A DNA stretch of 64,000 nucleotides from an uncultured Thiotrichales bacterium (GCA_964439815.1 CAYTPO010000142.1:6310-70309), one strand, 5' to 3'. Shown: positions 9,224 to 47,172, counted from the first letter of the stretch. A program made the numbers and translations. Notes: generated by a model from the sequence alone, not told the origin.

Positions 9224-9330
9224 GTCAGGTTCGATGGAGTAGTAGATGTCGGGGGAAACCCACCCGTCACTTGTCCCTGACAACTCAATACTGAATAATC
9301 ACGGTTCCTTTCAAAAACTTACCGTGCAGT

Positions 9331-10998
<1,668 letters not shown>

Positions 10999-27679: not shown

Positions 27680-27910
27680 TTTCAATACTCCATAGCGAAA
27701 CATTGCGCAGACAACTCAAGAGGTCGCAACAGTGCTTCAGGGGTTAGAACCTCCACATACCCCGACTGACAACCATCATTATTGCGACGGCACCCAGCCA
27801 GCCGTGTCGGTATGTGTGTGAATTTACCTGCCACCTTCAGGTGCAGGCGCGCGCTTTATACCACAAAGAAACAGCTACTCCAACAAAAAAACGGAGCCAG
27901 ACGAGTCCAC

Positions 27911-28615
27911 TTATTTGATATCAATCATGTTGGGGACTTCACGAACAAACTCCCTGGAGCCTTTTTCCAGCTCGTCAGCCGAATCGACCGGATTGGGCAT
28001 GCTGACGGATGGGAACTCCCACCCTCCGGGCATGGTTCCCATCTCACTGGGCGCATCGATCATGTCATCCCACATGTTGGCAAATCCCTCCTTGGGTCCA
28101 CCTCTGCCACCAAACCAGCTACTGGGGCCATTACCCCTCCCAAACCAATTTCGTGGACCATTGCCCCCAAACCAGTTACCCCGATTGAATGAACCACTGT
28201 TCCAGGGGCCACTCGACCAGGGGCTTCGGCTTCCCATGCGTGGCATGGAGAATCCCATCGGGCCGTTGGAATAGCCGTTCGAGTATCCGTAAGGGCGCCT
28301 GTATCCATAACCGGGACGGCCTCCACCATAGGGATAATAACCTCGCTGGGCGGGATACCCACGGTTGCCATAATAGTAACCCTGCTGTTGCGGCGCCGCA
28401 GCAGGTTGCCGGACGGCCGCCCGGGGGGCCGCCGCAGGTACCGACGGCGCAACCGCCGCCGATGGCGCAGGCGCTGCAGCAGGTGGCATGGCGGATGGCA
28501 CCTCATCCGGCTCCAGTGGCGGGAATTCCAGCTTCTGCTCGGCAGTGGTGTCTGCCGCCGCCAGCATTGGATAGAACATGGCCGTCAACACCAGCGCAAT
28601 ACTTTTCGATTTCAT
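27911..28615 (-). CDS. Secreted low-complexity Gly/Tyr/Trp/Pro-rich protein, candidate sulfur-globule-envelope-like structural protein
   Basis: Signal peptide MKSKSIALVLTAMFYPMLAAA. A Pro/Ala-rich linker is followed by GYYYGNRGY...GYGYRRPYGYSNGYSNG and NWFGGNGPRNWFGRGNGPSSWFGGRGG repeats. Its composition recalls the Sgp proteins of purple sulfur bacteria, and aprBA is present in the same window. Confidence 0.5.
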   Translation of the reverse strand: MKSKSIALVLTAMFYPMLAAADTTAEQKLEFPPLEPDEVPSAMPPAAAPAPSAAVAPSVPAAAPRAAVRQPAAAPQQQGYYYGNRGYPAQRGYYPYGGGRPGYGYRRPYGYSNGYSNGPMGFSMPRMGSRSPWSSGPWNSGSFNRGNWFGGNGPRNWFGRGNGPSSWFGGRGGPKEGFANMWDDMIDAPSEMGTMPGGWEFPSVSMPNPVDSADELEKGSREFVREVPNMIDIK

Positions 28616-28779
28616 GTGAGCCCACCTGTGGCTTTCTCGTTGCAATGGCTCATTGAATCACTTTTCGGACTATCACGCTATAAAGTCAATAAGTTAGAAT
28701 ATTACGCTTTACTGAATCGACGTTTCTCTATCAACTTCCTGCAAGCTATACTGCATCGATACACCCTTTCACTCAGGTC

Positions 28780-29430
28780 ATGAACTCCTCCGTACCCGAT
28801 AACGAACTGCCTGTCACCGCTGCCAGCAATCTGATTGCCTGTCGCGACTGCGATCTGCTGCAAACACTGCCGACACTCAAGCACTCTGCGAGAATCTGCT
28901 GCGTCCGTTGCGGTGCCACGCTATACCAATTCAAGAAAAACAGCATCGAACGCAGCCTCGCTCTGGCCAGTACAGGCCTGATCCTGTTTCTGGTCAGCAA
29001 CATGCTGCCGTTTCTGGCCCTCAATGCCCAGGGCCGGGTTCAGGAAGCCAGCCTGCTCTCCAGCAGTCTGACCCTGTACCAGCAGGGCCGCCCCTTTCTC
29101 GGGATTCTGGTCTTTGCCACCACCTTCATGTTTCCACTGTTCAATCTGCTGGCCATCCTCTACCTGCTCATCCCACTGAAATTGGGGAAGACGCTGAACT
29201 ACAGCAGGCGTGTTTTCCGCTTTTTGCAGAGCACCGAGCCATGGGGCATGCTGGAGGTCTTCATGCTGGCAACCCTCGTGGCTGTCGTCAAACTGGGGGA
29301 TCTGGCAACCGTTATTCCGGGCCCCTCTCTCTATGCCTTCAGCCTGCTCATTTTCGTACTTGCCGCATTGAACAGCTCTCTCGATCCGCATCTGATCTGG
29401 CATAAACTGGACTCGAAATGTCAGCACTGA
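28780..29430 (+). CDS. pqiA: Paraquat-inducible protein A-like membrane protein, first of two half-size pqiA genes
   Basis: Cys pairs CRDCDL...CVRCG followed by 4 TM helices, like one PqiA repeat unit. Confidence 0.8.
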   Translation: MNSSVPDNELPVTAASNLIACRDCDLLQTLPTLKHSARICCVRCGATLYQFKKNSIERSLALASTGLILFLVSNMLPFLALNAQGRVQEASLLSSSLTLYQQGRPFLGILVFATTFMFPLFNLLAILYLLIPLKLGKTLNYSRRVFRFLQSTEPWGMLEVFMLATLVAVVKLGDLATVIPGPSLYAFSLLIFVLAALNSSLDPHLIWHKLDSKCQH

Positions 29431-30038
29431 CCGCTGCCTCCGCCGGACTTGTTTCCTGCCATGTCTGTGATGCACTGTCGCAGCAACCCCAGGGCCGATC
29501 TACCCGGATCGCCTGCCCACGCTGTGGCGCGCGCGTCCATTCACGCCTGCCGCGCAGCATCCATCGTACCTGGGCCCTGCTGCTGGCTTCGATGCTTCTC
29601 TATGTCCCCGCCAATCTGTTCCCCATCATGAGCGTGGTCTGGCTGGGACAGGGGGAACCCGCCACGATTATCGAAGGGGTGCAGCAACTGATTGCCGAAG
29701 GGATGTGGCCTCTGGCCCTGATCGTCTTTGTCGCCAGTGTCTTCATTCCACTGTTGAAAATGCTGGTACTGGCGCTGTTGCTGATGTCGGTGCAGCTGGG
29801 TTCGACCTGGCGGATGCGTGACAGAACACGGCTCTATCGGATCACTGAATTTGTTGGTCGCTGGTCCATGGTCGACATCTTCGTCATTGGCATTCTGGCC
29901 GCGCTGGTACAATTTGGCACCCTTGCCACCATCGAACCCGGCATTGGCTCCCTCTCGTTTGCCGCCGTCGTCGTCCTGACAATGTTTGCCGCACACAGTT
30001 TCGACCCACGCCTGATCTGGGATGCACTCAATGACTGA
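29418..30038 (+). CDS. pqiA: Paraquat-inducible protein A-like membrane protein, second half-size pqiA gene, overlapping the first by 13 nt
   Basis: CHVCDAL...CPRCG followed by TM helices; paralogous to the preceding ORF. Confidence 0.8.
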   Translation: MSALTAASAGLVSCHVCDALSQQPQGRSTRIACPRCGARVHSRLPRSIHRTWALLLASMLLYVPANLFPIMSVVWLGQGEPATIIEGVQQLIAEGMWPLALIVFVASVFIPLLKMLVLALLLMSVQLGSTWRMRDRTRLYRITEFVGRWSMVDIFVIGILAALVQFGTLATIEPGIGSLSFAAVVVLTMFAAHSFDPRLIWDALND

Positions 30039-31686
30039 CCCATCACTCGACCAACTCCCCGAGGCCATTACCGAGGAAGGCAGCCGCTTTTCCCTGGTCT
30101 GGCTGATTCCGATTCTGGCGCTGGTGATTGGTGGCTGGCTGGTCTACAAGTCCTATAGTGAAAAGGGACCAACCATCACCATCAGCTTTAGCGAAGCCGA
30201 GGGTCTGGAACCGGGCAAGACACGCGTGCGCTACAAGAACGTGGATGTCGGCAAGGTCAAGCGTATCGAGCTGAATGAAGACCTGTCCCATGTGGAAGTA
30301 ACCGTGGAACTGAAGAAATCCATTGGCAGTCATCTCAATGAAAACACCCAGTTCTGGATCGTCAGCCCACGCATCAACCCCAGGGGAATCTCCGGCCTCA
30401 ACACACTGATTTCCGGTATCTATATCGGCATGGATCCGGGAGAAGGTGGCGCTGCCCTGAGCCATTACAACGGACGCACCGAGCCATTGCCCATCAAGTC
30501 GGACGCAGCCGGCAAGCCGTATGTATTGACAGCAGACAGTCTGGGCTCGCTGGATATCGGCTCCGGCATCTACTATCGCCAGATCCAGGTTGGGGAAGTT
30601 ACCGGCTATCATCTTGACAGCAACGGGCGCTCCGTTGTCATCAATATCTTCATTAATGCCCCCTACGATCAGCTGATTCACGAAAACAGCCGCTTCTGGA
30701 ACGCCAGTGGCTTTGATCTGCGCCTGACATCAGAAGGCGTCAGCGCCAGGCTCGAATCGTTATCGGCATTACTGACCGGCGGAATTGGCGTAGATACACC
30801 ACACAACCTGGAGGCCGGCGCACTTACCGTGGGTGGAGAACGTTTTGCGCTACTGCCCGACCACGCCAGCATCGAAAACAAACCCTACTCACTGACCGAG
30901 TATTACGTGCTCTATTTCGACAGTTCGATACGCGGCTTGCATATCGGAGCAACCGTCGAGTTCAGGGGGATTCAAGTCGGCGAGGTCATCGATATCGACG
31001 TACAGATGGATCATCGTACGCTGGAGGTCAGGATTCCGGTACTGATCGCACTGCACCCGGATCTGATCACCGTCAGCGGTGACATTGGCAGCCCCGAATC
31101 CGTGCTGGAAACTCTGGTAACCCGCGGTCTGCGTGCACAGCTGGCATCAGGCAATCTGCTGACCGGGCAACTGTTTGTCGATCTCGACTTTCTCGAAGAG
31201 GTACCGGACGCCCAGATCACTCAGTCAGGTCCCTTCCGCGTATTCCCCACCGTGCCAGGCGCCATGGAAAAGCTCACCCGCAACGCCACCGAGCTGCTGA
31301 ACAAGATCGGCAATGTCCCACTGGTGGAAATCACCAATGATCTGCGCGATACCATCAAGGCACTGCGGGGAATGATCGAGTCTCCTGCCTCGAAAAATGC
31401 CGTCACACATCTTGCCACCCTGCTGGACAACACCAGTTCGCTGGCGAAAAAGCTCGACCGTGCGGTCCCCACACTGGCAAAACGAATCGAGTCATCATTG
31501 ACGCAAGCGGAAAAGACACTCGCCACAGCGGATGCAACACTGTCGGAGGATTCCCCATTGATCTACGACATTCGTCTCCTCATCGACCAGCTCTCTTCAG
31601 CCATCAACTCCTTCGAGGCATTAACCGACTACCTCGAACGACACCCCAATGCGCTGCTCTACGGTAAAACCATCGATACCCCATGA
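30022..31686 (+). CDS. pqiB: MCE-domain protein PqiB (intermembrane transport protein)
   Basis: 554 aa. N-terminal TM segment, three MCE-like domains and a C-terminal helical region. Operon position after pqiA. Confidence 0.85.
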   Translation: MHSMTDPSLDQLPEAITEEGSRFSLVWLIPILALVIGGWLVYKSYSEKGPTITISFSEAEGLEPGKTRVRYKNVDVGKVKRIELNEDLSHVEVTVELKKSIGSHLNENTQFWIVSPRINPRGISGLNTLISGIYIGMDPGEGGAALSHYNGRTEPLPIKSDAAGKPYVLTADSLGSLDIGSGIYYRQIQVGEVTGYHLDSNGRSVVINIFINAPYDQLIHENSRFWNASGFDLRLTSEGVSARLESLSALLTGGIGVDTPHNLEAGALTVGGERFALLPDHASIENKPYSLTEYYVLYFDSSIRGLHIGATVEFRGIQVGEVIDIDVQMDHRTLEVRIPVLIALHPDLITVSGDIGSPESVLETLVTRGLRAQLASGNLLTGQLFVDLDFLEEVPDAQITQSGPFRVFPTVPGAMEKLTRNATELLNKIGNVPLVEITNDLRDTIKALRGMIESPASKNAVTHLATLLDNTSSLAKKLDRAVPTLAKRIESSLTQAEKTLATADATLSEDSPLIYDIRLLIDQLSSAINSFEALTDYLERHPNALLYGKTIDTP

Positions 31687-32285
31687 AACCAAATCTGCAA
31701 CGCCTTCTGCTACCGGGATTCCTGCTCACGCTGCTAGGCAGCTGCGCCGTGCATGAAGCACCAACCCATTTCTACTCACTCAATGCCACTGTTCAACCAG
31801 CGCAGCAGACAATGCGACGACCGATAAAAATCGGCGTGGGTCCTCTCAATTTTCCCAAGGTGCTGCAACGCCCTCAGGTCGTTACCCGCAAGGGGGACAA
31901 TCAGATCAATGTTGCGGACTTTCACCAGTGGGGTGGCAGGCTGGATGAAGAGTTTCTGCGGATTCTCGGGGACAATCTGGTTACCTTGCTCGGCAGCAGC
32001 GAGGTCTATACCTACCCATGGGAGAGCAGGCTCAGGCCCGACTACCAGATCAGGATCAGCGTATCGAGATTTGATGGCCGACTCAACGATGCCATCACGC
32101 TGCGTGCCCGCTGGCAGCTACTGAGCCGCAAGGGACGCAGGGAACTCGTATCGGTACAGTCCAATATCGTTGAACCGGTTCATGGCAAGGCGTATGCCGA
32201 CTATGTTGCCGCCCAGAGCCGGGCGCTGGAAAAGCTTTCACGGGAGATCGCGGCAAAGATTGCCGTATTCGCCGATTCAAGGTAA
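31683..32285 (+). CDS. pqiC: PqiC/YmbA-like lipoprotein (ABC-type transport auxiliary component)
   Basis: Lipobox LLTLLGSC, about 200 aa, overlaps the pqiB stop. Gene order is conserved. Confidence 0.75.
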   Translation: MKPNLQRLLLPGFLLTLLGSCAVHEAPTHFYSLNATVQPAQQTMRRPIKIGVGPLNFPKVLQRPQVVTRKGDNQINVADFHQWGGRLDEEFLRILGDNLVTLLGSSEVYTYPWESRLRPDYQIRISVSRFDGRLNDAITLRARWQLLSRKGRRELVSVQSNIVEPVHGKAYADYVAAQSRALEKLSREIAAKIAVFADSR

Positions 32286-41126: not shown

Positions 41127-42089
41127 TCAGATAACGGTCAGACTGCCATCATCATCGTCATTTCCGTCCTTCTCCACCGATGCAAACTGCGCTGCCTCTT
41201 CCACCCTGGCCTGCTCCAACACGTCACGCTGACGCTGTATCTCCTCTTCACGACGCCTCTTCCACTCCTCCTTGCGCACGGCAACCCGCTGTTCACGGGC
41301 ACCCTCTTTCACCCGGATACGCATCTCGCCAAACAATACCTGCTTCAGGAAACGCATGCTGAAGACCAGCAAGTTTTCGTCTGAAGAGAGAACCGTGGTC
41401 ATCTCGTCGGGCGGAACATCAAAAATATTCTGAAATCCGGGAGTCTGCACAAACTTTCTGAAGCTATCCATATCATAACTACACATATCGAACAGCTGCA
41501 GGCTACGAGCTGAAGGCGAACCGACAGTAGGCCCCGAGGTGCGTTTCTTGATGACCACATCCATCCATTCCCGATTGGCTTCCTGGTAGTCGGGGATACC
41601 CTGCTTGTCGAGATAGTCGCGCACCGTCTGCCTTACCGGTTCTTCATGGCCTTTGCAGTGATCTTCCCTGACGACAAAGAAAACCTCTTCAACCCTGGGC
41701 TCATCAATCTTCCGCATGGCCATGTTACCCAACGCGTAATAACGACAGGCCACGGGTCGATCTTCATAGACGCGACAGCCATCGTCCGACAGAAAGGTAC
41801 AGCAAGATGATTTACCCGCCGTGGCCAGTCTCAGACCCGGCATGCCATGCTGATCCATCTCGAAAGGGACGGTGTAGCGTGCAACAAACTCGGCGGAGGT
41901 CATCTTCAACCGCCTTTTCAATCTTATGACGTCATAGGGGGTAAGTTGAATGTCACTCTGCTTGCAGCATGCGTTGAAACACGACACCCCTGGATGACAG
42001 TCAAACTGGAATTCCGCATCCAGAGACAGCTCCCGTGGCTGCACAGGACTCTGGTTTGGAATGCTATCCCTGATGTCATCAAAATCCAC
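41127..42089 (-). CDS. YkgJ-family putative Fe-S/zinc-binding protein (CxxCxxCC domain) with a highly charged C-terminal tail
   Basis: CHPGVSCFNACCK motif (the putative zinc- or iron-chelating domain pattern CxxxxxCxxxCC), additional Cys residues, and a C-terminus rich in K/R/E ending in DDDDGSLTVI. Confidence 0.55.
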   Translation of the reverse strand: MDFDDIRDSIPNQSPVQPRELSLDAEFQFDCHPGVSCFNACCKQSDIQLTPYDVIRLKRRLKMTSAEFVARYTVPFEMDQHGMPGLRLATAGKSSCCTFLSDDGCRVYEDRPVACRYYALGNMAMRKIDEPRVEEVFFVVREDHCKGHEEPVRQTVRDYLDKQGIPDYQEANREWMDVVIKKRTSGPTVGSPSARSLQLFDMCSYDMDSFRKFVQTPGFQNIFDVPPDEMTTVLSSDENLLVFSMRFLKQVLFGEMRIRVKEGAREQRVAVRKEEWKRRREEEIQRQRDVLEQARVEEAAQFASVEKDGNDDDDGSLTVI

Positions 42090-42130
42090 TCATACTCCCT
42101 TCATCATGAGATACCGAGATCGAAACTTTT

Positions 42131-42175
42131 TACCTGAATCCGAGAATTAACCTTGGCTTCAGGTGCTCAGTGAGC
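42131..42175. repeat. REP-like element (tacctgaatcc...ccttggcttcaggtgctcagtgagc) of the CCTGAATCC / TTCAGGTGCTCAG family
   Basis: Shares the 13-mer ttcaggtgctcag with 2094-2110 and the arm cctgaatcc with 2052-2060. Confidence 0.55.
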
Positions 42176-42310
42176 AGGCTTGAGCGGCAGCAACTACGCA
42201 GATAGCTTCTGCCCCCCCCCAGATCAAGCGGTGTATTTCACCCGATCTGCGGGAAAAGTGCAAAGAATTATACAAAAAGCAGGGGAACTGGATTGGGAAC
42301 AGCCATTACC

Positions 42311-42345
42311 AATAAAAAAAGGCCGGACATCCTGGATGTCCGGCC
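42311..42345 (-). terminator. Rho-independent terminator of aprBA (12-bp stem ggccggacatcc / ggatgtccggcc, then a T8 run on the minus strand)
   Basis: Perfect stem at 42321-42332 / 42334-42345. The A8 run at 42313-42320 on the plus strand is a T-run on the minus strand. Confidence 0.85.
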
Positions 42346-42375
42346 TCGGGCATTTCAGGCTCCCAGTACTCCACG

Positions 42376-44349
42376 CTATATGGAATCAGGCCCCATGTGA
42401 CCCATACCTTCCGCCTCGGTCTCGGGGTTATAACTGATCAGGCATTCCCACTTCACCTTCTTCAGGCTCCACATACCGGTTTCCTTGTCGTAGGTGCTGT
42501 TGACGAAGCATTTCCAGTTGTCATCATCCACGGCCAGAAAGTCCGTGCGGTAGAAGTACCCCGGATAACGGGTCTCTTCACGGAACTGGATGTGCTTCAT
42601 GTGCGCCGTGGCGGCCAGGATACGGTGGTGATTCTCCCAGGCACGCAGCAGTTCATGCAGGTCTTTTGCTCGCGTTTTGGTGGCATCTTCACGCAACATT
42701 TCCAGTTTGCGCTCGGCGACTCCCAGCATCACCGCGTTGGTCTGGTACATGGTGGAGACGCCAGCCACATATTCATCCATGATTTTCTGCAGACGGAACT
42801 GCAGCATCCTGGGCGTAATGTAGTTGGGATTGACATCAATGGCTGTGGTGTAGTCCTTGTGCTCCAGAAAGGTTCTTACCGGAGCATAGATTTCTTCCAC
42901 GATCTCATTTACCGGACGATCCAGCTCGCGTTTCACGTCCTTGGTATCGATGACATATTTGACCATCGCCTTGGCGGCAATCCGTCCTTCGGTAAAGGAG
43001 CCCGAGCTGAATTTGTGGCCTGAGGCGCCGACACCATCACCAGCTGTAAACAGACCATTGACCGTAGTCATGCGGTTGTAACCCCAATGGTAATGATCCG
43101 GTGAGCCTGGCAGATCTTCGGGACCCGATACCCAGATCCCAGCGCAGCCTGCGTGGGAACCCAACAGGTACGGTTCGGTAGGCATCAGTTCGGATACGTC
43201 CTTGTCGGGCTCGATATTTTCCCCTGCCCATACACCGCACTGCCCGATGGTCATGTCGAGAAAGTCTTCCCATGCTTCGGCTTCAAGGTGCTTGATCTCC
43301 TTGGGCGTCATGTTCTTCGCCAGGTTGGCCATGGCAGTAGGCGTGTCTATGAAGATCGGGCCACGACCTTCCTTCAATTCCTTCATCACGAGGTGGTTGC
43401 GCAGGCAAGTCCCCATATGGAACCCTTTTGCATACTGCGAGGCATTGACGTTTTCAAGCTCCTTGTAGTTCTTTTCCTGGTAGTCTTCGCCAAAGGCGTT
43501 GGTGGATTTGGCCTTGAACAGAAGAAACCAGGCGCCTACGGGTCCGTAACCATCCTTGAAGCGGGCGGGCACGAAGCGGTTTTCCATCAGGGTCAGTTCT
43601 GCACCAGCTTCTGCGGCCATCGCGTAGGTGGAACCGGCGTTCCAGACGGGGTACCAGGCACGCCCCATACCTTCGCCCACCGAGCGGGGACGGAAGACAT
43701 TCACGGCACCGCCACAGACTAGCAGGCAGGCTTTGAATCTGTAGATGTAGACCTTGTCTTCACGTACCGAGAAGCCGGCGGCTCCAACTACGCGAGTAGG
43801 GTCATTCTTGTCATTGAGCAATTTGACGATAAAGACGCGTTCCTGGATGTTTTCTGCGCCCAGAGCCTTCCTTGCGGCTTCTGCAACGATCCATTTGTAG
43901 GATTCGCCATTGATCATGATCTGCCAGCGACCGGAGTTGACAGGCGTACCGCCCTCTTTCAGGCTCTTGTCTTCTTCGCCTTCCTTCTTCCAGATTGGAA
44001 GCCCCCATTTCTCGAAGTTGTGAACAGAATCATCGACATGACGGCCCACATCGTAAACCAGATCTTCACGCGTCACCCCCATGAGGTCGCCACGGACATA
44101 GCGCACATAATCCGCAGGATCATTCTTGCCCATATAGGTGTTGATGGCTGACAGACCCTGTGCAACTGCACCGGAACGATCCAGGGCAGCCTTGTCGACC
44201 AGTTTCACGCTGATGTCATGGCCGTCAGCCTTGGCGGCGTCTGTCCAGCGTTTGAGTTCGAAGGCACATCCGCAGGCAGCCATGCCGCCTCCAATCAGAA
44301 GGATGTCTACTTCTTCCTCAACAACATCTGGGTTGCCGAATCCGCTCAT
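42376..44349 (-). CDS. aprA: Adenylylsulfate (APS) reductase alpha subunit
   Basis: 657 aa. FAD-binding ILLIGGGMAACG, DRSGAVAQGLSAINTY, GLPIWKKEG, and a C-terminal HMKHIQFREETRYPGYFYRTDF matching AprA. Confidence 0.85.
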   Translation of the reverse strand: MSGFGNPDVVEEEVDILLIGGGMAACGCAFELKRWTDAAKADGHDISVKLVDKAALDRSGAVAQGLSAINTYMGKNDPADYVRYVRGDLMGVTREDLVYDVGRHVDDSVHNFEKWGLPIWKKEGEEDKSLKEGGTPVNSGRWQIMINGESYKWIVAEAARKALGAENIQERVFIVKLLNDKNDPTRVVGAAGFSVREDKVYIYRFKACLLVCGGAVNVFRPRSVGEGMGRAWYPVWNAGSTYAMAAEAGAELTLMENRFVPARFKDGYGPVGAWFLLFKAKSTNAFGEDYQEKNYKELENVNASQYAKGFHMGTCLRNHLVMKELKEGRGPIFIDTPTAMANLAKNMTPKEIKHLEAEAWEDFLDMTIGQCGVWAGENIEPDKDVSELMPTEPYLLGSHAGCAGIWVSGPEDLPGSPDHYHWGYNRMTTVNGLFTAGDGVGASGHKFSSGSFTEGRIAAKAMVKYVIDTKDVKRELDRPVNEIVEEIYAPVRTFLEHKDYTTAIDVNPNYITPRMLQFRLQKIMDEYVAGVSTMYQTNAVMLGVAERKLEMLREDATKTRAKDLHELLRAWENHHRILAATAHMKHIQFREETRYPGYFYRTDFLAVDDDNWKCFVNSTYDKETGMWSLKKVKWECLISYNPETEAEGMGHMGPDSI

Positions 44350-44401
44350 TGTTCTCTCCAGGTAAGGTTGGTTCTTCGATATTTCTTGATCAGATCAGTG
44401 T

Positions 44402-44866
44402 TCAGCCGGCACGAAATTGTGACATGTCACAACTGTGTGTGCCTTTGGTGAACAGGGTCGAGTGGTCAGCGATTTCCTCCAGGACTGCATCGTTCTCGCC
44501 ACCATAGGGATCAGCTGAACCTTCTGGCGTGGTACGAATGGGAAATTTGAATCGCTTCATGTTGCCATTGCGGAATTTAATGGTCCAGATGATGGAGTCT
44601 GTGCCTCGCAGAGGCTGGACACTGCCCCCCATCGGTACCACATCGGCATAGGAGCGACATTCAATGGCATTCTGTGGACAGATCTTGACACAGCTGTAGC
44701 ACTCCCAGCACTGTTCCGGTTCCTGGTTGAACGCTTTCATTGCATGGCCAGTCTCGGAGCCATCCGAATCGAGTTTCATCAGGTCATGCGGGCAGATGTA
44801 CACGCACGCCACTCTATCCTGCCCCTTGCAACCATCACATTTATCGGTACGTACGAACGTAGGCAT
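44402..44866 (-). CDS. aprB: Adenylylsulfate reductase beta subunit (iron-sulfur)
   Basis: 154 aa. Two [4Fe-4S] ferredoxin-like Cys clusters (CDGCKGQDRVACVYICP and CWECYSCVKICP), plus the AprB-specific C-terminal tail. Confidence 0.85.
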   Translation of the reverse strand: MPTFVRTDKCDGCKGQDRVACVYICPHDLMKLDSDGSETGHAMKAFNQEPEQCWECYSCVKICPQNAIECRSYADVVPMGGSVQPLRGTDSIIWTIKFRNGNMKRFKFPIRTTPEGSADPYGGENDAVLEEIADHSTLFTKGTHSCDMSQFRAG

Positions 44867-45292: not shown

Positions 45293-46807
45293 TCAGTGGC
45301 GTCGACGACGCAATCCGAGGAAGCCGAATCCAGCGAGCATCAGCCCCATGGCACCACCACCGCCACCACCACTGGAAGAAGTATCATCCGTTGTTGGCGT
45401 GGTAGGTGTAGTTGGCGTAGTCGGGGTAGTAGGTGCCGTAGGTGTGGTTGGTGTCGTGGGGGTGGTTGGCGTAGTCGGGGTGGTTGTATCCTTACCGAGA
45501 TCAGCCGGTGCCACACATTTGCGCAAAGCGATACCAGACAGCGCTACAAGATTGTAGTTATCTTCCTTGATGTTGCTGTTTCTGACCTCAAGAGTCGCCT
45601 TGTTGCCGGGCTCGGGATCAACCTGCAGGCTGATCTGATGCCATTGGTCCGTTGTCTTGTCTTCAACCAGAGTAAACACGGGTGACGTGGCAGAGCCGGC
45701 CACCAATGTAATTTCAGCATCATCTCCACCAGTTCCAATAACTTCCGATACCGGAGCAGGATTGGAAACCCACACCTCAAACTGGTATTTGGCTTTGGGA
45801 TCAAGCCCGGAAACCGTTTGCATCCAGATTCCGGGACCACCTGACACACCAGCACCGGATGCCAGGAGGTAGCCCGGCGCCTTGTCCAACGCAGGAATAT
45901 CACCCGCCTTCTTGGCGCCTGGGAACGGATATTGGAAATGAGACAGGTCTGTAATCGTGATATTACTGGCCGGCGCAACACCAGGTGCCGCAGCAATCTC
46001 GGTCACCAGCGCAACCTCCTTGTAATTGGCAAAGGTGTTGTCTCCCACGAATTTGTAGTCACTCTTGAAGGATTTGGCGATGAGGCTATTGGGAGGTAGC
46101 GGGGTAGTCTTGCCATCGGCACCTTTAGGCAGAGCACCATGTGGTGTTGAGAAATCACCATTAACCACCTTATTGGTGGTATCCGGTACTGTCCCTTGAG
46201 GACAAACCGATGCATGGGCAGATGGGGCTGATGGCAATATGAAGGTTGCGGAATCCGTCTTGCCGTTCATGTCTGCAGTCGAGGTAAAGGGCCCCTTGTT
46301 TGCAGTACCCACATCAACGGTGACGTCATAACGAACAATAATGGAAGAATAGGGAGACAGCTTCTCCTTGTCTGCGAAAATCTTGTCGCCCTTGTCAGCT
46401 CCGGTTGCTACCCCGGCAAAACCAGGATTCAACGTCAGGGTTGCATTCTGAAAATTGGCCTTGGGTTTTTTTGTGCTGTTCTCATCCTGTACCACCTCAT
46501 CCAGAATGGTCAGATTCTCGACCTTTACCGAATTGCGGATCGCTGCAGGAAAACTGTTCTTGATGGCGTCTGTAATCTGTACTTCCACAGCTGCAGGAGG
46601 CGTTCCCGTCGCGGGAATGGTGTCGTCATTAATGATGCGTTGCTGTATAGAGAAAGTATATTTCGTTCCGACGGCTGTAATTGGTCCCTTCACCTCACGC
46701 AGAAACTGCAAGGCAGCATCGACATCCATACTGAATGTAAGGCTGGAAACAGCCAGAACACCTGCTGCCAATGGAGTGAGTGAGAAAAACTTGCGACTTT
46801 TCGACAT
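45293..46807 (-). CDS. Secreted protein with a Thr-Pro repeat linker and a C-terminal GlyGly-CTERM-like sorting signal (candidate rhombosortase substrate). The real start is MSKSRKFF.
   Basis: Signal peptide. C-terminus reads (TTP)n...SSSGGGGGGAMGLMLAGFGFLGLRRRRH, a Gly run followed by a hydrophobic helix and an Arg cluster. Confidence 0.6.
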   Translation of the reverse strand: MSKSRKFFSLTPLAAGVLAVSSLTFSMDVDAALQFLREVKGPITAVGTKYTFSIQQRIINDDTIPATGTPPAAVEVQITDAIKNSFPAAIRNSVKVENLTILDEVVQDENSTKKPKANFQNATLTLNPGFAGVATGADKGDKIFADKEKLSPYSSIIVRYDVTVDVGTANKGPFTSTADMNGKTDSATFILPSAPSAHASVCPQGTVPDTTNKVVNGDFSTPHGALPKGADGKTTPLPPNSLIAKSFKSDYKFVGDNTFANYKEVALVTEIAAAPGVAPASNITITDLSHFQYPFPGAKKAGDIPALDKAPGYLLASGAGVSGGPGIWMQTVSGLDPKAKYQFEVWVSNPAPVSEVIGTGGDDAEITLVAGSATSPVFTLVEDKTTDQWHQISLQVDPEPGNKATLEVRNSNIKEDNYNLVALSGIALRKCVAPADLGKDTTTPTTPTTPTTPTTPTAPTTPTTPTTPTTPTTDDTSSSGGGGGGAMGLMLAGFGFLGLRRRRH

Positions 46808-47172
46808 GGAATTACCTTTAGTACAGAAATGTTTATAGTGTGGTATCAATCTGGAGAATCCGTGGCAGCGTACCCAATATAAAGCCACCTTCAGACCACG
46901 GGTTCATGGCGCGACCGGGTTTTGAACTCCAGATCCAGCAAGCCCTGCTGAATTCTTCATGCTGCCCTGATATATCGGGCATTTCCCTGATCGTAGCACG
47001 GTGCGACAACCCAAAACTGTGACGCAGTTGCAAGCACACCTGACTATGGCGTCTGCGACAGAAAAAAAGAGAAGCTTTACTTCAATCCAATTGATTATAG
47101 TGCAAACCGCCCACTGTCGTAACTTCACATAGGAAGACAGAGCTACCATACATAACATTCATTTCCCAGTAC

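Follow-up and report, generated by a model that had tools for sequence, protein, structure and literature searches.

A 64,000-nt stretch of DNA from an uncultured Thiotrichales bacterium (GCA_964439815.1, CAYTPO010000142.1:6310-70309), called the window in what follows, carries on its minus strand a genuine gene (27911–28615, stop codon included) for a protein of 234 residues, starting at an ATG. The product is predicted to be a Sec-exported, Cys-free and block-charged periplasmic protein, and its conserved C-terminal module, as judged by sequence comparison, defines a tight and previously undescribed family of the Gammaproteobacteria, carried mostly by sulfur oxidisers. The original prediction had proposed a candidate sulfur-globule envelope protein. 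Export, a composition like that of the sulfur globule proteins (Sgp), the aprBA genes in the same window and the sulfur-oxidising relatives all speak for that proposal, while homology to SgpA and SgpB was not found; the likeness appears to be one of composition only, and to be evolutionarily independent.

The C-terminal module and its family

The predicted mature protein has 213 residues (22.9 kDa, isoelectric point 6.6) and is laid out in blocks (Table 1). Its signal peptide, read heuristically, shows neither a Cys lipobox nor a twin-arginine motif, and two prolines of the acidic mature start, P32 and P33, are nearly invariant among the closest relatives (alignment A1, below). The cationic low-complexity region (residues 79-178) consists of G 28%, Y 12%, R 11%, P 11%, S 11%, N 9%, F 6% and W 5%, with the repeat units NWFG (at 147 and 156), SWFG (at 166) and GYGY (at 102), and YSNGYSNG within the same region; at the DNA level there are no significant tandem repeats in the gene except for one of 12 bp in 2.4 copies. 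The original prediction had described a signal peptide, an acidic segment, a Pro/Ala-rich linker and then a domain dominated by G, Y, N, W and R with NWFG and GYGY repeats, and the translation, residue counts and motif positions bear this out as far as residue 178, but it overlooked what follows. Conservation within the protein is strongest in its last 56 residues (179-234), which are not of low complexity. No Cys occurs anywhere in the protein, and a longer alternative reading from a TTG at 28645 finds no support from the homologues.

The module, with the motif WDDMxNAPxxMGxMPGGWxxPSxSxPNPVD, is about 55 residues long, non-repetitive and acidic (22% Asp+Glu in the window protein). A first search of 5.8 billion proteins yielded the identical protein, already deposited in public collections (P0001), together with 19 relatives, none of them named and none with a Pfam domain. 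In the alignment of these 20 sequences (A1) the low-complexity part is free to vary, while conservation is strong over the C-terminal ∼55 residues: W182, D184, M185, P189, M192, G193, M195, P196, G197, G198, W199, P202, S205, P207, N208, P209, V210 and D211 are the same in 20/20. When 1.84 billion cluster representatives were searched exhaustively by HMMER with a profile of the module, only 160 proteins were retrieved (145 at E≤1e-10); they range from 150 to 490 residues and always carry the module at the C-terminus. None of the 160 clusters is named or covered by a Pfam or NCBIfam model, and neither collection gives anything significant for the window protein. The latter fits the family: it heads alignments A1, A3 and A5, with the W, P, G, MPGGW, P, S and P.P positions invariant or nearly so. 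One hit, P0242 (1337 residues, 9 matches), was put down to chance, as this multi-cystatin protein has repeats that start with MPGGW.

The features ahead of the module are also common to much of the family. In 138 full-length members the pre-module region is Cys-free and contains P 16%, G 12%, N 9%, A 9%, Y 8%, Q 7.5%, S 6% and R 6%, with Val, Leu and Ile together reaching only about 6%; its median net charge is +6, against -7 for the module. A simple signal-peptide heuristic is passed by 107/145 full-length members, and a [FYW]-x0-1-PP motif lies near the mature start in 83/145. Two loci have a tandem paralog upstream (L013, 7948-9048, +; L049, 5853-7001, +) that has in common with the family gene a signal peptide, a PPPPPGGWEGV motif and GPSFSGPWDSGRGGSSMPW repeats; these paralogs contain long (D/E)xPEPP(E/K)W repeats and are without the conserved C-terminal module. 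A C-terminal sorting signal of the PEP-CTERM or GlyGly-CTERM type was considered for the window protein and rejected, as its tail (...EFVREVPNMIDIK) is acidic and amphipathic, with no transmembrane span and no basic end.

Structure prediction suggests a protein that is mostly disordered, apart from a helix-loop-helix of low confidence in the module. Given the family alignment, AlphaFold2 models the full-length chain at a mean predicted local distance difference test score (pLDDT) of 50.9. Residues 20-161 are essentially disordered, and two predicted amphipathic helices (174-187 and 209-226, pLDDT 60-74) flank the near-invariant loop APxxMGxMPGGWxxPSxSxPNPVD. Modelled alone with 56 sequences, the module reaches a pLDDT of 58.2 and a predicted template modelling score of 0.29, which is no confident fold, and a search of the PDB with the family profile gives 0 matches among solved structures. 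Such a module may be a docking element that folds upon binding.

Two narrow peptide patterns, run against one genome for each GTDB species, place the family in 58 species-level loci, all of them from Gammaproteobacteria or unclassified Pseudomonadota; with such patterns, absences elsewhere are uninformative. The named carriers include Thiothrix caldifontis DSM 21228, the gill symbiont of Solemya elarraichensis, and metagenome-assembled genomes (MAGs) of Thiothrix, Thiotrichaceae, Sedimenticola, Thiotrichales, Chromatiales and Arenicellales. With the T. caldifontis member (locus L055, 9479-10195) as query, Thiothrix subterranea (P0260), MAGs assigned to T. lacustris and T. litoralis, Candidatus T. 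putei, Candidatus T. moscowensis and Thiolinea are added. The named carriers are almost all sulfur oxidisers, and this distribution agrees with the presence of aprBA in the window. A member fused to a PDZ domain is recorded under the name of the sea spider Nymphon striatum (P0126, locus L061; KAG1650298.1, GCA_016618385.1); its 163-kb contig looks like a Thiotrichaceae-type contaminant or epibiont inside a eukaryote assembly.

Genomic surroundings

Within the window, rpsB and tsf lie directly downstream of the studied gene on the same strand, and pqiA, pqiB and a PqiC-like gene diverge from it upstream. Of these neighbours, rpsB, tsf, pqiA and pqiB were identified from the ORF (open reading frame) translations and the PqiC-like gene by a Pfam match; they agree with the placement between the rpsB region and pqiA given in the original prediction, which also called the gene monocistronic. 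That is plausible: the 208-bp spacer between its stop codon and the rpsB start holds a full-length t44 RNA, the known rpsB 5' leader, and rpsB therefore has a control region of its own. However, the gene runs in the same direction as rpsB-tsf, no sigma-70 consensus promoter was found upstream of it, and the hairpin that precedes a T-run 3' of its stop codon folds no better than shuffled sequence (z = 0.14). The aprBA genes had likewise been reported for this window, and are present at 42376–44866. Downstream of them, within 41127-44866 on the same minus strand, lies a gene for a 320-residue protein with a CxxCxxCC domain (PF03692), and a 531-residue ORF without a Pfam match (45293-46888) adjoins aprB.

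Table 1. Positions of the studied gene, the parts of its product and genes nearby (window coordinates unless a locus is named).
Feature	Position	Strand	Remarks
Coding sequence	27911–28615	-	234 residues + stop; frame kept in 58 genomes and 160 clusters
Shine-Dalgarno sequence AGGTGG	28622–28627	-	6 nt upstream of ATG; read off the sequence
Predicted Sec-type signal peptide, residues 1-21	28553–28615	-	MKSKSIALVLTAMFYPMLAAA, cleaved before D; type I AxA site AAA/D
Acidic mature start, residues 22-42	28490–28552	-	LEFPPLEPDE; semi-conserved aromatic-Pro-Pro motif
Ala/Pro-rich linker, residues 43-78	28382–28489	-	15 Ala + 9 Pro of 36; AlphaFold pLDDT <50
Cationic low-complexity region, residues 79-178	28082–28381	-	Gly/Tyr/Arg/Asn/Trp/Phe-rich; predicted disordered, pLDDT 36-46
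Acidic C-terminal module, residues 179-234	27914–28081	-	Family-defining; alignments A1/A3/A5, profile search, AlphaFold models
t44 RNA, full length	27743–27838	-	Rfam RF00127, 66.4 bits, E = 2.5e-14
PqiA, as two separate ORFs	28780–29430 and 29418–30038	+	ORF translations
PqiB	30022–31686	+	ORF translations
PqiC-like lipoprotein	31683–32285	+	Pfam ABC_trans_aux
aprA	42376–44349	-	657 residues, FAD_binding_2
aprB	44402–44866	-	PF12139 + 4Fe-4S
MltB-type SLT_2 gene	L055 10267–11418; L057 1085–2668; L059 10389–11663; L060 10398–11574		Also L058, by sequence clustering

Across the family no conserved operon or synteny is seen among the loci; the neighbours are clade-specific and mostly of housekeeping type. 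Where the window clade has rpsB and pqiA, a second clade has a FolD-like gene, cytochrome b561 and LemA, the Arenicellales have ABC-F, DUF302 and HrpA, and a TPMT-like methyltransferase is found elsewhere. In the Chromatiales loci L014 (10562-15205, minus strand) and L017, and probably L053, a SoeABC-like trio is convergent with the family gene; it is made up of a 967-residue molybdopterin oxidoreductase without signal peptide, a 4Fe-4S subunit and a DmsC-type anchor. Signatures of SoxY (GGCGG C-terminus), DsrC (C-x10-C-V), AprA and AprB were found in none of the flanks of the 58 loci, which is uninformative given flanks of at most 10 kb each. Directly upstream of the family gene at L010, and divergent from it, is an ORF for a secreted protein of about 146 residues (9255-9695, minus strand), rich in Gly, Tyr and Asn and with several Cys, that has no Pfam match. 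An ORF of this type has the same position in L007-L009, L011 and L048, a clade that includes Arenicellales MAGs, and it may encode a second low-complexity periplasmic protein.

Relation to sulfur globule proteins

Among specific settings, the best fit for this protein is the envelope or matrix of sulfur globules, or a tether between globules and the cell envelope, a proposal that is tentative and has somewhat less than an even chance of being correct. It draws on the sulfur-oxidising carriers, the aprBA genes, the SoeABC-like neighbours, the composition, the export and the want of an operon. The proteins compared were three Beggiatoaceae sequences of SgpA/B type (from Beggiatoa and Thioflexithrix; PMC7356093, supplement), one of them ALG67575.1 of B. 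leptomitoformis, whose gene is transposon-disrupted in D-401, a strain without sulfur accumulation; expression of this gene rises 10-fold on thiosulfate (PMC7356093). The composition of residues 43-178 correlates with that of the three (r = 0.89) and lies closer to them than that of any other protein of the window, in keeping with the Sgp-like composition claimed in the original prediction. As with SgpA/B (PF17228; Allochromatium vinosum SgpA/B and ALG67575.1), the product is Sec-exported, free of Cys and rich in Gly, Tyr, Pro, Ala and Trp, and is encoded by a stand-alone gene in a sulfur-oxidising gammaproteobacterium. Sulfur globule proteins of differing types are known: SgpA and SgpB resemble each other, and SgpD of A. 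vinosum, a globule-associated protein with a Sec signal, is different in kind, with predicted helical coiled-coil repeats (PMC10386293), so that a further independent family is plausible. The window protein differs from SgpD in its predicted disorder, with only two short helices predicted; SgpC of A. vinosum is likewise globule-associated and has a Sec signal. The tandem paralogs at L013 and L049 have a parallel in the paralogous sgp sets reported in sulfur-storing bacteria (PMC6509183), a point in favour of an Sgp-like reading.

In outline, the protein would associate with itself to form a periplasmic scaffold or coat. Copies of its disordered block, rich in aromatic residues and Arg, would hold together by aromatic and cation-pi contacts, and the block would also adsorb to hydrophobic or anionic material. 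The acidic module, which includes the invariant MPGGW...PNP loop, would bind either a conserved partner or the cationic block of neighbouring molecules. The alternation of a cationic repeat region with acidic ends favours, by analogy, the predicted self-association. Comparable in physicochemical terms, with no homology, are the Gly/Tyr-rich keratin-associated proteins and the plant glycine-rich cell-wall proteins, classes to which Sgp have been likened; they too are predicted to be disordered, have few aliphatic residues, and show a similar spacing of Tyr, Trp, Phe and Arg by Gly, Ser, Asn and Pro. If set in a globule, the protein would work in the manner of SgpA/B/C/D, with an origin independent of SgpA/B. 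A fuller version, in which it is a lineage-specific organiser of periplasmic sulfur globules, with the disordered part as coat or matrix and the module (plus PDZ in the Thiotrichaceae) tethering globules to the cell envelope or recruiting envelope-remodelling enzymes such as MltB, is more speculative and must be called doubtful.

A number of observations weigh against a globule role. Homology to Sgp of the SgpA/B type, for which the original prediction had suggested a comparison, is not found by any of the means used. The PF17228 (SGP) model scores the three Beggiatoaceae proteins, as positive control, at 27.7, 22.7 and 21.4 bits (gathering threshold 26.7), and gives no match to the window protein at E≤10 and none (0/138) to the family members at E≤0.1; BLASTP of the window protein against Sgp returns E = 42, and HHalign a probability of 27% over 14 Gly/Tyr columns. 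The SgpA/B signature GWGDFNMSMGGGGRGYG is absent from the window protein, and these results together rule out an SgpA/B homologue. The canonical mature-start signature WWG...GPFD.GSGWGDFNMSMGGGGRGYG did not turn up when the window and every locus were scanned for the motif; a 'WGDF' match in L032 lies inside a family member and is not a canonical Sgp ORF. At 22.9 kDa the window protein is about twice the mature size of SgpA/B (about 8-15 kDa), and with 11% Arg in the repeat region, besides its acidic module, it carries far more charge than the Sgp, described as 'extremely hydrophobic'. That module, and the PDZ domain in some members, are features of the family seen in none of the SgpA/B-type sequences considered here. 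Canonical sgp genes are reported in SUP05, Thiodiazotropha, Endoriftia and Thiothrix, and there is therefore no obvious gap in these related lineages for the module family to fill. The T. caldifontis query also retrieves Cocleimonas flava and a Cocleimonas MAG, and sulfur inclusions in that bacterial family are reported only for Thiothrix, Thiolinea and Thiofilum (PMC10532065); as Cocleimonas is not among these genera, it is a caveat to the sulfur link. The codon usage of the gene, with GGA making up 28% of Gly codons and with AGG and CGA in use, is unlike that of rpsB and tsf, and argues mildly against a very abundant structural protein, although repeat-rich genes can show atypical codon usage anyway. 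A literature search by family accessions found no mention of these proteins. To these points are added the PDZ fusions and the genes next to Thiothrix-type members, described below. Finally, the original prediction had named homology to an unrelated periplasmic low-complexity family as an outcome contrary to it; the protein does belong to a separate family, and since that family is itself uncharacterised, this leaves the function unsettled.

Other possible roles and significance

An N-terminal PDZ domain (PDZ_2) is present in at least 13 members of the Thiothrix-type subfamily, and in every Thiothrix-type locus examined the family gene is followed by a co-directional gene for an MltB-type (SLT_2) lytic transglycosylase (Table 1), with a YkuD L,D-transpeptidase gene upstream in L059 (by Pfam) and L058 (by clustering). 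The SLT_2 gene of L060 is split into two ORFs, probably through a frameshift of long-read assembly. These fusions and neighbours point to general cell-envelope biology, and the MltB adjacency, like that of the SoeABC-like genes, may be meaningful. A serious alternative, though less likely than not, is accordingly a scaffold or spacer of the cell envelope that has nothing to do with sulfur, in which the disordered region would span or fill the periplasm and the module (plus PDZ) would position envelope machinery such as peptidoglycan-remodelling enzymes. The genes for PqiAB and the PqiC-like protein, which belong to envelope-spanning lipid transport and adjoin the gene in the window clade, would suit such a role, as would a member in Cocleimonas flava and the unremarkable codon bias. 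However, the protein has no recognisable peptidoglycan- or membrane-binding domain, and the MltB and pqi adjacencies are confined to one clade each and may reflect inherited gene order. An envelope scaffold also leaves unexplained why the ∼160 clusters are limited to lineages dominated by sulfur oxidisers and are absent from the well-sampled genomes of enterics, pseudomonads and vibrios.

An adhesive or functional-amyloid matrix, secreted or at the surface and acting through a prion-like Asn/Gln/Tyr-rich region in holdfasts, rosettes or on host surfaces, is improbable. Many members do have N/Q/Y-rich tracts (for example L018, L023 and L028), the carriers include attached filaments (Thiothrix, Cocleimonas), symbionts and the epibiont-like contig of the sea-spider assembly, and a few members show a weak Pfam likeness to Cytadhesin_P30 and Extensin, these being compositional matches. 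Against this, no curli, Fap, type I or type II secretion genes adjoin the gene in any clade, the Sec signal alone predicts a periplasmic location, and many of the carriers are MAGs of free-living sediment bacteria.

The Met and Trp residues of the module raise the question of a periplasmic Cu(I)/Ag(I) binder, for which the Met/Met/Trp site of CusF and the Mets motifs offer an analogy: the module of the window protein is 11% Met (M181, M185, M192, M195, M206 and M230), Trp199 adjoins MGxM, and MxxxM and MGxMPGGW could be read as Mets-like motifs. This is very improbable and was dropped, as conserved ligands are missing. Only one Met, that of MPGGW, is conserved in ≥90% of the family, and entire clades have L, V, F or A at the other Met positions; His and Cys do not occur, the loci show no copper-resistance genes in the vicinity, and metal binding would not account for the long aromatic disordered region. 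Lastly, the notion that the ORF arose by chance in a compositionally biased stretch, or is the antisense of a real gene, to which plus-strand ORFs of 119-155 residues overlapping it lend some colour, has practically no chance of being right and is effectively refuted by amino-acid conservation that only the minus-strand frame shows (30-65% identity over 58 genomes and 160 clusters), by the signal peptide and Shine-Dalgarno sequence, and by the identical deposited protein.

With a profile model of the module, annotation pipelines could give a name to about 160 clusters now called 'hypothetical proteins', and the family is testable in cultured carriers such as Thiothrix caldifontis, T. subterranea and Cocleimonas flava. 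Should it prove not to be associated with globules, it would still be an unannotated periplasmic family of unusual architecture. The packaging of elemental sulfur in the bacterial periplasm is poorly understood, and few sulfur coat proteins are known (SgpA-D and the Beggiatoa Sgp), several of them from one purple sulfur bacterium. The present family pairs an Sgp-like disordered region with a dedicated, putative docking module, and, if associated with globules, could give clues to how these are nucleated, sized or anchored in chemotrophic sulfur oxidisers and symbionts. If its members do organise globules, they would form a fifth, evolutionarily independent class of sulfur globule protein, and an example of a condensate-like scaffold in the bacterial periplasm.

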